This document shows, piece by piece, positions 10,037 to 37,893 of a DNA stretch of 38,224 nucleotides (position 1 is its first letter; each line of letters opens with the position of its first letter). Location: positions 1 to 38,224 of the IMG/VR virus record IMGVR_UViG_2541047899_000010; one strand, written 5' to 3'. This stretch comes from a virus. Taxonomy: Duplodnaviria > Heunggongvirae > Uroviricota > Caudoviricetes. Under the pieces are notes generated by a model. That model saw nothing but the letters and a program-made list of their open reading frames with translations, was not told the DNA's origin and made no database searches. The position numbers and the translations under genes were made by a program.

Positions 10037-10348
10037 ATGACGACACCAACCAGACGGATAAGTTTCTATCTGAAGCCCGCCGCCGTCAAGAACGAAGGCG
10101 AAGCATGCGCCTGGCTGGACAGCCTTACACCAGAAGCCCGCAAAAGCGGCCAACGCGTGGCTTTTCTGGCCGGGCTGGCACTTCTGAAAATGAATCCGGC
10201 AGAGGCTTACCGACTGGCTGCATGGGCTGACGATGAGGCGTTATCAGTGACACAAACCAGGGCAGAACGCCACATGTTACAGACAGCCCCCACCGCACAG
10301 ATAACCAGTCAGATGGCCGGAAATATCCGGGCGTTATTTCCCGATTAG
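10037..10348 (+). CDS. parR: ParR-like adaptor (putative ribbon-helix-helix centromere-binding protein)
   Basis: 103 aa; ATG 7 nt after AAGGAG and 4 nt after the parM stop. The N-terminal RISFYLKP beta-strand pattern resembles R1 ParR (recalled). Confidence 0.55.
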   Translation: MTTPTRRISFYLKPAAVKNEGEACAWLDSLTPEARKSGQRVAFLAGLALLKMNPAEAYRLAAWADDEALSVTQTRAERHMLQTAPTAQITSQMAGNIRALFPD

Positions 10349-10417
10349 AACTTTGCACGGGAGGTTTCCAGTTCTGAAAACAATCAACAAATAAGGAGTC
10401 GAACGTCAAAGATATAA

Positions 10418-10445
10418 GGCCGCCTAGCTGGCGGTCTTGTGTCTT
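10418..10445. terminator. Bidirectional hairpin terminator between convergent parMR and ATPase/Toprim operons
   Basis: ggccgcc-tagc-tggcggtc hairpin with T-rich flanks on both strands. Confidence 0.45.
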
Positions 10446-10478
10446 AAAATATGTTTATCTTAATGAGGACTATTATTT

Positions 10479-10997
10479 TTATAAAAAATAATCATCATGA
10501 GAGGAAACATGAAAATTATAATCTCTCAATTGGGGGATAATCCCTCTACTCCAAAGCAACGTTTTATTTAGTCCAAGTCCATCTAATTTCATCATCCTGT
10601 TGCGCAGCGCAATGAATTCATTCTTGAAGTTATCTGCAGAGATGATCTTTGGGCAAAAACAAGAATACAACTTTCTATTACTTACACCACAAGCATTGGC
10701 AAGCTCATCCTCAAAATTGCTTGTTTGTTGAAATAGGTGGATTGTGTGTTTTTTCGCCTTTAATAGATTGAGATTATTCTTAAATCTATCAAGATTCTCA
10801 ATCCTATCCGTATCAAAAACCACTATGATTTCGCTATTTTCGGTTAATGCTGGCATGTATTTATTTATATTAACATTCCATAAATTAGCAATTACTATTT
10901 TCTTAATAGGATAGCCTAGCAATGTTTTGAAATCCTGAAACAATGCTTTTTCCGTATCTCCCTCAACAAGAATAATAGCAAATTTCTTAACTGCCAT
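10479..10997 (-). CDS. Small Toprim-like protein (DUF4276/RloB-like), putative nuclease partner of the ATPase
   Basis: 172 aa from ATG at 10997, 2 nt after the ATPase stop and preceded by GAGGA. N-terminal ILVEGDTE (conserved Glu) and VVFDTDR (DxD) fit a Toprim-like fold. Locus is markedly AT-rich. Confidence 0.6.
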   Translation of the reverse strand: MAVKKFAIILVEGDTEKALFQDFKTLLGYPIKKIVIANLWNVNINKYMPALTENSEIIVVFDTDRIENLDRFKNNLNLLKAKKHTIHLFQQTSNFEDELANACGVSNRKLYSCFCPKIISADNFKNEFIALRNRMMKLDGLGLNKTLLWSRGIIPQLRDYNFHVSSHDDYFL

Positions 10998-10999
10998 AA

Positions 11000-12199
11000 T
11001 CAATCCTCAAATAGCATCTCTTCGATTAATGAAACGTCAGGTATTGTAGCAAAACAGTCATTTTTTACTTTATTTAAAAGATTGCGATCATTCTTTTTAT
11101 GATGTGTGGTAGCTTCAACAAAAGTGGTTACACCATCTACTTTTTTAGTAAAAGTATATGAATGCGTAGGCAGATCTAAGCTCAAGATATCATAATTATG
11201 TGTGGTGTATATAAATTGACCATATCTGCAAAGCTTAGATATAATCAGCGTGACCATCATTTTTTCTAATTCAGTATGAGTGAAGGCCATTTTCTCATCC
11301 AAAAAGTACACCCCACTGCAAGGGAAATTGAACTCTCGCTCTTCTATTTTATCTTCAAGCACTCCTGACAGGAGATGGGATATTTTTACTGCCTCATAAG
11401 TACCACGAGACAGTCTATCTTTATTTGTTATATCACCTTCCATATCAATAATAACTCTATCTCCATTATTGAAGACTACTGAATAACCCTGCAAATCCTC
11501 CTTTCCCTCATCATCTTTAAGAGTGAGTCCTGAGACAGATTTAACAGTATTGTCAAAGGTTTTTAATATGCTATTAAGCACATTCTTCTTAATTCGTGAT
11601 ATTTTATCCGTGTTCTCTTGGTTTTCAGATAGAATGAAATGCCAACCAAGAACAAAGTCCAAATCCTCTAAATATTGGGAAAATTCTTTTGAGTTAGCGT
11701 TTTCGGTTGAAAAAAATCTATTTTGACCATTTAATTCAAACTTTTGCGCATCCCACACAGCATCCAATCTTTTGGTCGTCTTTGCGCATGATTCCGAGCT
11801 TCTTAAATCAACAGATGCCATTGCAATTTTTTCTACAGCAACAGACTCATCCATAGCCCTAAGCCAGACACCTGCCCTAAACAAACATTTTAAATGACTC
11901 TGGAAAAAGTCAACCTCTATATATGCAGGTTTTCTTTTGTCAGTAATTTTTAACGGTTCTGGATTGAAAACACCACTACTGAGAAAACGCAACACAGAAA
12001 GCATCACGCGACCAAGAGATGTTTTACCAGATGCATTAGCACCAGAAACGATGCAAACCTTTTTGAAGTAGAACTTTTCAAATCCATCAATGTACTCACC
12101 TTCCAGTGAGCTGTTGATCGGGGGTCTGGAGAAGCTTAAGTCAAGGATGCTATTTTCAAAGCAAAACAGATTATCGATTCTGATTTTTGTAAAAGCCAT
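11000..12199 (-). CDS. ABC-type ATPase (AAA_15/AAA_21-like) of a candidate anti-phage module
   Basis: 399 aa. Walker A GANASGKTS, Walker B VYFLDE, H-loop TTHN, with a long helical insert between A and B as in OLD, AriA and AbiL-type ATPases. AAGGTGG upstream of the ATG. AT-rich. Confidence 0.75.
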   Translation of the reverse strand: MAFTKIRIDNLFCFENSILDLSFSRPPINSSLEGEYIDGFEKFYFKKVCIVSGANASGKTSLGRVMLSVLRFLSSGVFNPEPLKITDKRKPAYIEVDFFQSHLKCLFRAGVWLRAMDESVAVEKIAMASVDLRSSESCAKTTKRLDAVWDAQKFELNGQNRFFSTENANSKEFSQYLEDLDFVLGWHFILSENQENTDKISRIKKNVLNSILKTFDNTVKSVSGLTLKDDEGKEDLQGYSVVFNNGDRVIIDMEGDITNKDRLSRGTYEAVKISHLLSGVLEDKIEEREFNFPCSGVYFLDEKMAFTHTELEKMMVTLIISKLCRYGQFIYTTHNYDILSLDLPTHSYTFTKKVDGVTTFVEATTHHKKNDRNLLNKVKNDCFATIPDVSLIEEMLFED

Positions 12200-12377
12200 T
12201 TTGTTCCACCTTTTGGAAGTAAATATTGCTACCTGTTGAGTTTACATGTAATGAGCTGGTAAGCAATACAGGGATTCGATTTAGCGCACAATAGTGCACA
12301 AATTTGCACAATTTTTTTGAACGAATTTTTGCCCTTCTGGCCCGCGTGGCGGCTGGATCCGTCAGGGATCCGTGCGT

Positions 12378-34175: not shown

Positions 34176-34332
34176 AGCTTCAGCCCCTTGTATCCGTTAA
34201 ATGATTCGGCAACAATCATCACCCACCACGCGCGTAATCTCACCCCTGCGCCGTTCTCCCGACCCGGCGACAACAAAAAGCAGTAACCCCCTCCGCACGC
34301 ACATGCGACCATGCCGCACAGGGAGGGAACAG

Positions 34333-35442
34333 ATGACCGATACCACCATGCAATTGCTCAGTCAGGGCACAGACCCCGTGAAAATGCCGGATTTTGATAT
34401 TCTCGCGGAGGGTAAAACGCTGTCAGGCGTGGCAGAGCGCCTGATGAGCCTGTCACTGACCGACAACCGGGGATTTGAGGCGGACCAGCTCACCATCACG
34501 CTGGATGATGCGGATGGTCAGTTGCAGCTACCGCCACGGGGCGCGCGCCTGACGGTTCTCATTGGCTGGAAAGGAGAACCGCTGACAGAAAAAGGCACTT
34601 ACATTGTTGATGAAATCGCTCACGAAGGACCGCCGGACAGGCTGACTGTTTCAGCCAGAAGCGCAGATTTTCGGGATGAATTTAACGTTAAACGTGAGGT
34701 GTCCTGGCATGATGTGACCGTTGAGCGTGTGGTATCCGCCATCGCTCATCGGTATGGTCTGAAACCGCAAATCAGCGAAATGCTGATGGATATCGAAATC
34801 GACCACGCCGACCAGACCGAAGAAAGCGACATGTCCTTTCTTACGCGCATGGCGGAAATGCTGGGCGCAATCACCACGGTAAAAAGCGGTAATCTGTTAT
34901 TCATTATGCCAGGCGGTGGCGTGAACGCACAGGGCCAGCCGTTGCCATCGTTCGCCATTACACGCAGCAGCGGCGATCGCCATCAGTTCCGCATTGCTGA
35001 CCGCGAGGCGTATACGGGTGTACGCGCCTACTGGCTTGATCTTAATTACGGGAAAAAGAAAAAAGTCAGCGTGAAACGCCGCAAACCGCCAAAACCCAAA
35101 AAGGAGAAAAGCAGTAGCCGTGAAGGTGATTATATGGAAGGCGCGGAAGGCAATGTGTTTGTGTTACGCAAGACTTATCAGAACGAGCAGGCAGCAAGAC
35201 GCGCAGCGGCGGCAAAGTGGCAGCAGCTACAACGCGGAGCCGCATCATTCTCCATCATGCTGGCACGTGGACGCGCAGAACTCTACCCCGAAATGCATGG
35301 CACGGTAACAGGATTTAAAAGCGAGATTGATAATCAGGACTGGATTATTGCGAAAGCCGAGCACACCATTGATAACAGCGGCTTTACCACGCAGCTTGAG
35401 CTTGAAGCAAAAATCCCGGAATGGATAGCAGAAACAGAGTGA
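34333..35442 (+). CDS. D: Tail protein D (P2 gpD-like)
   Basis: ATG at 34333 preceded by GGGAGGGAA; 369 aa; position before ogr. The upstream part of the long ORF from 34201 is unsupported. Confidence 0.8.
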   Translation: MTDTTMQLLSQGTDPVKMPDFDILAEGKTLSGVAERLMSLSLTDNRGFEADQLTITLDDADGQLQLPPRGARLTVLIGWKGEPLTEKGTYIVDEIAHEGPPDRLTVSARSADFRDEFNVKREVSWHDVTVERVVSAIAHRYGLKPQISEMLMDIEIDHADQTEESDMSFLTRMAEMLGAITTVKSGNLLFIMPGGGVNAQGQPLPSFAITRSSGDRHQFRIADREAYTGVRAYWLDLNYGKKKKVSVKRRKPPKPKKEKSSSREGDYMEGAEGNVFVLRKTYQNEQAARRAAAAKWQQLQRGAASFSIMLARGRAELYPEMHGTVTGFKSEIDNQDWIIAKAEHTIDNSGFTTQLELEAKIPEWIAETE

Positions 35443-35791
35443 GCAACTTGGATGCATTAGCTCAGACCAAAGCTGGCACGCTTACGACGCAGAACCAAAC
35501 CTAATCTGACAGTCCGCTTTGTACCAGAAGCAGACATTAATAACATTATTTGCAATAACCAATTGATATTGTTTTTATTGCGTGTTATTAAAGCATATCC
35601 ACTTGTGGTCATTACCAACTACTCGTCTATTTTTATTTGTGAACAAAATCAGATTTTAGCTAGAAACATTTTGTGAAAAAAATAGCGAAATTTTTGTAGG
35701 AAGTAAGTCAAGCAGATATAGCAGCAGATCGGAAGTTATTGGTCATGCGTTATTTACTCTAAGCAAAAAAACTTAGTACAGGAAAAAATAA

Positions 35792-37375
35792 ATGGCAAGT
35801 AAAGCTAACCTTGTTAATTTGGATGCGATGATTTCAAGAGAGGATTTCTCTGCTCAATCCGATAATGATTTATCTTTCGAATCTATACAAAATATAGCTA
35901 TGAGAGATATCGGAATGTTGTCTGGCCTACTCAGAAAACCAGATTTTCAGAGAGAAACAAATCACTGGACTCCAGAGCAAGTAGTTTCATTACTAAAGAG
36001 TTTTGTCACAGGTGATTTAATACCATCCGTGATTTTATGGAAGAGTTCTTTTGTGTTTGTTATAGACGGTGGTCATAGACTTAGTGTTTTAAGAGCATGG
36101 AAAGAAAATGACTATGGTGATGGCACTATATCGCAAAAATTCTTTGGAAATAGTATTTCCGGAGAGCAAAGAAAGATCGCACAAAAAACAAGAGAATTGG
36201 TTGACTCCACAGTTGGTAAATGGTCTGAGATAGAAAGAAAAATGCAGGATTCTAATAATGACCATGATGAGAGTAGAAGGCTTACAAATATTTACGTAAG
36301 GGCTTTGCAAGTCCAGTGGGTTAAAGGTGATTCCGATAAGGCAGAAACGTCTTTTTTCAATATAAATAAAAAAGGTACTCCTTTAGATGAGGTTGAGGAA
36401 ACTTTACTTAGGCATAGGAAGAAACCTATATCTATCGCTGCGAGAGCAATAATACGAGCAGGAAAAGGACATAGATACTGGTCCTCTTTCCCTGAGGATA
36501 AGACTAAAAAGATAGAAGAGCTTTCCTCAAATATAAACTCCTCTCTTTTCGATCCAGACGTTAAATCTCAAATTAAAACACTCGATCTACCTCTGGGTGG
36601 CTCACGCGGTGTGAGGTTAGCTCTTGATATCTTAATAGATCTTATGTCTATTTCCGTGTCCCAGAGCGAAAATTATCAAAAAGAATTGCTTAATCAAATC
36701 GAAGATTCAGATGGAAGCGAAACTGTTGTTGTTCTGGAAAAAACCGCAAAATTACTAAATTGGATTACTGGAAATGACAAGGGCAGCTTAGGATTACATC
36801 CGGCCGTGTATTTTTATAGTGCATCAGGCAGACATGTGAATCCTATGTTTTTAGGGACGACTCTGTTTATAGCGAAAAAATTAAAATTTAATGATAAGAA
36901 CTTCTTCAAAAAATTCACAAGTATTAGGTTTAATTTAGAGAAAACTCTAATAAACAATAAGTCTATGCTAGCATCGTTAGTGAACAGAGCAGGACATAAG
37001 AAAAGAACTGAGTATTACTCTAATTTATTTGAGTCAATGATTGATTTCCTTCTTGAGGTAAAAAAGAAAGACAAAAGCATGAGTGATTTCAGCCTTACAG
37101 AAAGTGAAATACTCCAGCTTGCTCACTTTGAAGGTAATATCCTATCTGGGACAAGTATCAGCAATGCAACTAAAATTAGTGAGGAAGCGAAGAATGCTGT
37201 ATTCATTGATACTGCATTAGCTTCAGCAATTACATGTCCTATCTGCCAGGGATATTTAGATCCTTCAAAATCTGTCTCATATGATCACATCAAAAGAGTT
37301 GCAGATGGTGGTAAAGGTTCGGCAAAAAATACTCAGTTAACTCACCCGTATTGCAATATGTCTGTCAAAAATTAG
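35792..37375 (+). CDS. GmrSD/DUF262-DUF1524-like protein: N-terminal ParB-like NTPase domain fused to C-terminal HNH nuclease (candidate type IV restriction or defence enzyme)
   Basis: 527 aa in an AT-rich island. N-terminal DUF262 hallmarks (PDFQRE...W then VIDGGHR, equivalent to the DGQQR motif). C-terminal His-Me finger (CPICQGY...DHIKRVADGG...NTQLTHPYCN). Confidence 0.7.
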   Translation: MASKANLVNLDAMISREDFSAQSDNDLSFESIQNIAMRDIGMLSGLLRKPDFQRETNHWTPEQVVSLLKSFVTGDLIPSVILWKSSFVFVIDGGHRLSVLRAWKENDYGDGTISQKFFGNSISGEQRKIAQKTRELVDSTVGKWSEIERKMQDSNNDHDESRRLTNIYVRALQVQWVKGDSDKAETSFFNINKKGTPLDEVEETLLRHRKKPISIAARAIIRAGKGHRYWSSFPEDKTKKIEELSSNINSSLFDPDVKSQIKTLDLPLGGSRGVRLALDILIDLMSISVSQSENYQKELLNQIEDSDGSETVVVLEKTAKLLNWITGNDKGSLGLHPAVYFYSASGRHVNPMFLGTTLFIAKKLKFNDKNFFKKFTSIRFNLEKTLINNKSMLASLVNRAGHKKRTEYYSNLFESMIDFLLEVKKKDKSMSDFSLTESEILQLAHFEGNILSGTSISNATKISEEAKNAVFIDTALASAITCPICQGYLDPSKSVSYDHIKRVADGGKGSAKNTQLTHPYCNMSVKN

Positions 37376-37405
37376 CAATGAGTTAACAATTTTATATCAG
37401 ATAAC

Positions 37406-37430
37406 AGCCTTCTATAATTGAAGGCTTTTC
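37406..37430 (+). terminator. Intrinsic terminator after the GmrSD-like gene
   Basis: agccttc-tataatt-gaaggct hairpin followed by tttc. Confidence 0.5.
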
Positions 37431-37632
37431 GTATGATGCTTTCTTCAATAGAAATGTTGAGTATGATGGAAGATCTCTAATAGTGAATGGTTCGGTTAGG
37501 CCAGATACCTACCACTCTACACAAAACTTTGTGTCCGATCCTCGCTCACAGCAGTCGCTCCCAAGGGTTTCAGTTGGAGTCTGAGCTAGTACAACTTAGA
37601 ATAGCGGCAGCACCACGTTAAGGGAGGTCGCT

Positions 37633-37893
37633 ATGTTCCGTTGTCCGCTTTGTGGCGCATCTGCCCGTATCCGCACCAGTCGTCCGGAAAATGATTCAAA
37701 CACCGTGCGGCAAAAGTATTACCAGTGTAACAATCTGGAATGCGGCGTATGCTTCTCAACACTGGAAGCTTTCCATAAATTCACATCAAAACACGCCTCC
37801 GGCGTTCACTCTTCAGAAGGTATCCCGTGGCATGAGCTGCCAGCTTCACACAGGGGAAACAATCAGATGAGCTTGCCTTTACCTCAGAATTAA
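37633..37893 (+). CDS. ogr: Ogr/Delta-family zinc-finger late-gene transcription activator
   Basis: MFRCPLCGASARIRTSR...YYQCNNLECGVCF recalled as matching P2 Ogr (MFHCPLCQHAAHARTSR...YHQCQNVNCSATF), with four Cys in the same spacing. GGGAGG upstream. Confidence 0.85.
   Translation: MFRCPLCGASARIRTSRPENDSNTVRQKYYQCNNLECGVCFSTLEAFHKFTSKHASGVHSSEGIPWHELPASHRGNNQMSLPLPQN

Follow-up and report, generated by a model that had tools for sequence, protein, structure and literature searches.

A DUF262-HNH gene of the broad GmrSD class in an AT-rich cargo island between D and ogr of a P2-like prophage

Background

The GmrSD family in the strict sense is defined by the combination of DUF262 with DUF1524 (Machnicka 2015), and the motif (I/V)(I/V)DGQQR is kept in nearly 100% of its members (PMC4619093). 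Its enzymes cleave modified (hmC or glucosyl-hmC) DNA only, with stimulation by NTP. The NTP pocket of DUF262 is further marked by the QR and FxxxN motifs (PMC12137116). A broad GmrSD family, comprising the clusters CLS_001-020 of single- or two-gene systems with a DUF262/COG profile match, is set out in the text of PMC12373910 (Nat Commun 2025), where the single-gene systems join a ParB_n/DUF262 domain to an HNH or a DUF1524 nuclease. According to that text, 15 GmrSD-type systems were synthesised, of which 8 restricted T-even phages, the active ones going unnamed there, and GmrSD-CT596 (CLS_006), BrxU/GmrSD-ECOR21 (CLS_010) and GmrSD-ECOR17 (CLS_003/004) have "virtually no similarity" to other clusters beyond DGQQR.

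BrxU (PDB 7P9K) and the canonical GmrSD enzymes (Eco94GmrSD, CT596 GmrSD) are DUF262-DUF1524 proteins of Type IV, and BrxU also cuts 5mC DNA and switches from dimer to monomer. SspE (PDB 6JIV) and DndI (PDB 9JFL) are phosphorothioate-sensing DUF262-DUF1524 nickases with DGQQR, which work together with adjacent ssp or dnd phosphorothioation genes. NsnA of the Menshen system and PD-T4-2_A carry no nuclease and need partners (the NsnB ATPase and NsnC, and PD-T4-2_B, respectively). In P2-like phages, short, AT-rich and variable defence-type cassettes between conserved genes have been described at the A-Q (tin/old) and Z/fun hotspots (PMC9122126, PMC9519451). The D-ogr junction lies outside the sites analysed by Rousset 2022 and Vassallo 2022; we considered whether the hotspot of Rousset 2022 might be the same site and rejected this, as the hotspot there is A-Q.

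An AT-rich island separates D from ogr

We analysed a stretch of 38,224 nt (hereafter the window) in which the following features delimit an insertion:

34201..35442, + strand: gene D (P2-type tail/baseplate), the left conserved flank (Pfam Phage_GPD, E 5e-17)
35453..37592, no strand assigned: inserted AT-rich cargo island relative to the empty D-ogr site (2140 nt; placed by BLAST break-points against phage P88, border sequences and composition)
37633..37893, + strand: ogr (late-gene activator), the right conserved flank (Pfam Ogr_Delta, E 5e-14)

Up to position 35452, the sequence matches D from phage P88 and further P2-like phages at 93-95% nucleotide identity, and from 37593 onward, on the ogr side, identity to P88 is 96%. 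In relatives, the annotated start of D lies ~130 nt further downstream than the first ATG present here. The original prediction of a roughly 2.2-kb low-GC insertion was borne out, with 36.3% GC in the island (35453-37592) versus 52.1% in the remainder of the window, a D-ogr interval of 2190 nt (35443-37632) and an inserted part of ~2140 nt. The claim that D and ogr are normally adjacent also stood: in phage P88 the two genes lie 42 nt apart at an empty site, and among 60 records taken at even intervals from the 1205 matching E. coli records, 33 had an empty site, 18 held a cassette and 9 were unresolved. The only other equally AT-rich stretch in the window is the A-Q cargo region near 10200-12300. 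The A-Q hotspot of this prophage is occupied too, and an AbiL-like pair is present in the same prophage.

The island is bordered by segments that recur around other cargo:

35453..35538, no strand assigned: left border segment, a diverged form common to cassettes with differing cargo, which includes the left inverted-repeat arm
37563..37593, no strand assigned: right arm of an imperfect inverted repeat, inside the right border segment (~37570-37600)

On the left, homology to the loci L002 and L004 runs to ~35533-35538 despite their different cargo, and the right border segment is likewise common to cassettes with different cargo. The left arm of the inverted repeat (35453-35483) spans 31 nt with 71% complementarity (p ~0.003 versus shuffles), and a direct-repeat copy, CAACTTAGA, follows the right arm. 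Across nine cassettes, the inverted repeat was significant in two only, that of this window and the YecA-type; we therefore dropped the idea of transposon-like terminal repeats and claim no mobile-element mechanism. Common to the borders of D-ogr cassettes is a direct repeat of roughly 9 bp, with the inverted repeat present in some, and these shared borders might hint at a dedicated exchange mechanism.

Two candidate expression signals flank the single gene of the island:

35539..35791, + strand: AT-rich leader upstream of the cargo gene (GC 0.31-0.36), with AGGA ~10 nt before the ATG as seen by sequence inspection
37406..37436, + strand: intrinsic-terminator-like hairpin with a T-rich tail, 30 nt past the stop codon

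The leader presumably carries the cargo gene's own promoter; a sigma-70 scan upstream of the gene returned no consensus match at the scan threshold and no convincing promoter. The hairpin itself (37406-37426) has a 7-bp stem (AGCCTTC/GAAGGCT) and a 7-nt loop (dG -13.2 kcal/mol, folding z -2.2). As the terminator that had been proposed for the island, it is well placed but statistically modest, one such site being found against 1.1 expected in shuffles. A search of Rfam gave no RNA family within the island.

The 18 occupied sites of the 60-record sample held at least eight different cassettes, and at least seven unrelated cargo genes without HNH domains occur at the D-ogr site within the same borders. 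This alternative cargo includes PIN_12, DUF3800, SEC-C and a weak HEPN match, and a PADLOC search of seven alternative cargo types matched no known defence system. The island is AT-rich foreign DNA at a site with other nuclease-like cargo (PIN_12, DUF3800, weak HEPN). The site resembles the A-Q and Z/fun hotspots in holding a short variable cassette between conserved genes, but differs from them in position, not being next to cos. We flag the D-ogr junction of P2-like prophages as a source of further single-gene defence candidates.

The island gene encodes a DUF262 protein with a zinc-type HNH finger

The cargo gene and the domains of its product are as follows:

35792..37375, + strand: cargo gene, 527 aa with ATG start and the stop codon included; DUF262-HNH protein of GmrSD-family cluster CLS_014
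35930..36397, + strand: DUF262/GmrSD_N (ParB/Srx-like NTP-binding) domain, aa 47-202
36404..37216, + strand: all-helical middle domain, ~aa 205-475
37226..37372, + strand: C-terminal zinc-type HNH (beta-beta-alpha-metal) nuclease finger, aa 479-527

Profile searches found both domains that had been predicted from the ORF. The Pfam GmrSD_N/DUF262 match (aa 47-202) has an E value of 8.7e-13 and 49.3 bits, well above the cut-off of 33.2, and covers the expected FQR (F52-Q53-R54) and DGGHR (D92-R96, in the context VIDGGHRL), together with the wider QR motif (Q53 R54 ... W59) and FxxxN (F188...N192). For the HNH finger, PF01844 falls slightly below threshold in the protein itself (E 9e-4, 19.8 bits, cut-off 21.4), but is clear across the family, with matches in 66 of 75 members (best E 1.4e-9). 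The finger is laid out as C482-x2-C485 ... D498-H499 ... N513 ... H518-x2-C521-N522, from which C482, C485, H518 and C521 would form a CCHC zinc site and D498-H499, N513 and N522 a putative catalytic D-H-N-N set. Among the 75 members (30-78% identity), Q53, R54, W59, D92, G93, H95, R96, F188 and N192 are invariant, as are C482, C485, H499, H518 and C521 of the finger, and D498, N513 and N522 reach 90% conservation or more.

DUF1524, which had been named alongside DUF262 for the Pfam search, was not found: PF07510 gave no match in the 527-aa protein (E up to 0.1) and in 0 of 75 family members (E up to 0.01). The DUF1524 motifs that we sought were (E/D)HxxPQ, LGNLxLLxxxN and NxxFxxKK, and the segment YDHIKRV...NTQLTHPYCN matches the spacing of PF01844 rather than that of DUF1524. 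The middle domain (~aa 205-475) had no match in Pfam. By analogy with the 'ParBDB'/GmrSD-M domain (PMC12065111), it may bind or sense DNA and serve as a linker, like the corresponding part of BrxU, SspE and NsnA. Searches of NCBIfam with the 527-aa protein returned nothing useful; PHROGs gave a full-length match to phrog_29172, a family of unknown function, and the NCBI annotation of the gene reads 'GmrSD restriction endonuclease domain-containing protein'.

The predicted structural model (pLDDT 92.8, pTM 0.90) has helices across residues 212-477, and its closest solved structural neighbours are BrxU, SspE and DndI, with further matches to ParB-N and sulfiredoxin folds and to Cas9 HNH domains. 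Sequence searches of the PDB, with the single sequence and with a profile, yielded nothing relevant. From the N to the C terminus, a DUF262 domain, a helical domain and a His-Me nuclease follow one another.

The original prediction had also assigned the protein a GmrSD/BrxU/SspE-like architecture, and this was supported by the domain order, the structural neighbours and the CLS_014 listing, with the reservations that DUF1524 is absent and that DGGHR stands in place of DGQQR. Like BrxU and canonical GmrSD, the protein is a single polypeptide without a methylase, with the same order of NTP-binding domain, helical domain and His-Me finger and with QR and FxxxN conserved. With the strict family it shares the N-terminal DUF262/ParB-Srx fold, QR and FxxxN, and a His-Me finger with D/E-H-N-N, whereas the DGQQR motif and the C-terminal DUF1524 have no counterpart. 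The DGQQR common to the characterised GmrSD clusters is absent, the family consensus at this position being DG(A/G)HR, and in place of DUF1524 stands a zinc-ribbon PF01844-type HNH (CxxC...HxxC). Judged by these sequence features, the protein is not a canonical GmrSD. Its identity to BrxU and canonical GmrSD is 13%, with no match in sequence and profile searches, and PADLOC gave no match to its GmrSD, BrxU or SspE models, only domain-level matches to NsnA and PD-T4-2_A. SspE and DndI, which differ from it in carrying DGQQR and DUF1524, offer a mechanistic template as NTPase-gated nucleases. Neither sspABCD nor dndBCDE genes turned up in the immediate neighbourhood of the cargo gene, in the ORFs scanned in the window or beside its relatives.

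The nearest defence HMMs for the DUF262 domain were NsnA (75 of 75 members, best E 3e-12) and PD-T4-2_A (25 of 75). Both matches are confined to this domain and the partner genes are absent here; we rejected membership in Menshen (NsnABC) or PD-T4-2, since the neighbours are D and ogr and the matches are domain-level only.

The gene belongs to a catalogued and widespread single-gene family

The same gene is on record as WP_000146939 (ECO103_RS09955, E. coli O103:H2 12009), at 99.6% identity for the gene and 98.8% for the locus. Supplementary Dataset 6 of PMC12373910 files it under GmrSD-family CLS_014 with gpD and Ogr_Delta neighbours, and by this listing it belongs to the broad GmrSD family as that source defines it. 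WP_021293132 (E. coli ATCC 8739), 52% identical, is also placed in CLS_014 there, and the text of the same source states no activity, specificity or inhibitor for this cluster. A literature search for the gene's accessions, or for GmrSD in P2-like prophages, produced no match. The gene family is thus already catalogued, and the finding, while sound, is fairly ordinary and of incremental value.

Relatives sharing 30-58% identity make up a distinct, widely distributed family of single genes; in nine other contexts no partner gene is conserved. In the Burkholderia P2-like phage KL3, gp44 (55% identical) sits in the A-Q defence hotspot and adjoins an EcoRII restriction-modification system. Other homologues lie between a delta-like gene and int in a Yersinia P4-like satellite, in lambdoid prophages, in the filamentous prophage Pf8 (annotated 'repressor C', probably wrongly), and, outside phages, in integrase islands and chromosomal islands; one is located beside a type I hsdR. 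The gene family is moved between Proteobacteria by temperate phages, by satellites and even by filamentous phages. That the KL3 copy is linked to a Dcm-type (EcoRII) cytosine methylase speaks for tolerance of CCWGG methylation in this family. Because of this methylase in cis and the residence of the gene in E. coli, the family probably does not cut 5mC DNA, which sets it apart from BrxU.

Interpretation of the island and its gene

In our view, the island quite likely represents a 'moron', an accessory cassette occupying a variable cargo site of P2-like prophages at the D-ogr junction, and the product of its one gene a defence nuclease that acts alone and falls into the broad GmrSD/BrxU/SspE class. 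Such a prophage-borne nuclease probably restricts other phages and is probably modification-dependent; we infer its nuclease activity, modification dependence and defensive role alike. Modification dependence is suggested by analogy and by the absent methylase, the cargo gene being accompanied by neither a cognate methyltransferase nor a partner gene in a Dam+ Dcm+ E. coli host. The gene would be expressed from the lysogen and end at its own terminator, leaving ogr insulated. Judging from BrxU, SspE and DndI, the DUF262 domain may bind and hydrolyse NTP through QR, DG(G/A)HR and FxxxN and act as a conformational switch. The helical middle domain would contact DNA and read a feature that marks it as foreign, and the CCHC-zinc HNH finger, with D498-H499, N513 and N522 intact, would then nick or cleave this DNA. 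Candidate targets are cytosines carrying a hydroxymethyl or glucosyl-hydroxymethyl group, as in T-even phages, or a different hypermodified base, and the prophage and its host would gain protection against phages with such bases. If active, the enzyme would represent a divergent, compact branch of modification-dependent restriction enzymes that combines a DG(G/A)HR-bearing DUF262 with a zinc-type HNH. Activity would also bear on host range in phage therapy, above all where T-even phages and others with hypermodified DNA are concerned, and might be of use for modified-DNA detection tools.

A more far-reaching reading, which we advance tentatively and hold to be doubtful, is that the D-ogr junction, with about a third of its loci occupied, adds a third and all but unexplored hotspot for cargo to those of P2-like prophages in E. 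coli, and that the DUF262-HNH proteins are a distinct Type IV lineage whose trigger is not the hmC or glucosyl-hmC read by canonical GmrSD. The trigger could then be 7-deazaguanine, hypermodified thymine or a feature other than base modification.

We consider it unlikely that the protein is instead an abortive-infection or toxic effector. In that case, a nuclease without specificity would be kept latent by the DUF262 NTP switch, and a phage protein or replication intermediate would set it free to degrade the DNA of the infected cell itself. Related GmrSD enzymes are described as grossly toxic when over-expressed in the text of PMC12373910, deregulated DndI and SspE introduce nicks into DNA and harm their host, and NsnA and PD-T4-2_A, the closest DUF262 HMMs, have unknown triggers. 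Prophage hotspots are also rich in abortive systems, the AbiL-like pair of this prophage being a case in point. However, all characterised single-polypeptide DUF262 nucleases (GmrSD, BrxU, SspE, DndI) read DNA modification, the protein bears no sequence sign of a protein sensor, and the family is stably carried without an antitoxin-like neighbour.

Two further readings, a ParB-like regulator and a homing endonuclease, were considered and ranked low. The first would have the gene, read from the late promoter along with D, serve the phage itself, for example as a ParB-like DNA-binding regulator or segregation factor, or as a nuclease that targets the DNA of the host or of a satellite in the lytic cycle. 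The position directly after D on the strand of D and ogr, the lack of an independent promoter in the scan, the place of DUF262 in the ParB superfamily and the label of the Pf8 homologue would all fit. We nevertheless judge it improbable, since the gene is dispensable (~55% of related prophages are empty at the site), the invariance of the catalytic HNH residues points to a nuclease and not simply to a binding protein, and the family also resides outside phages. Weakest of all, and in our estimate very remote, is a free-standing HNH homing endonuclease that cleaves the unoccupied D-ogr junction in related phages and is copied into it through repair: an HNH gene in an AT-rich intergenic insertion between conserved phage genes, the many empty sites of relatives and the short direct and imperfect inverted repeats at the borders would suit it, but the same borders enclose the unrelated non-HNH cargo, family members at 40-58% identity lie at unrelated loci and in elements without D or ogr, a 527-aa three-domain protein with an NTP switch is unlike known homing HNH enzymes, which are small nuclease-only proteins at a single cognate site, and the gene is carried by only 13 of the ~1200 E. 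coli genomes with the D-ogr junction.

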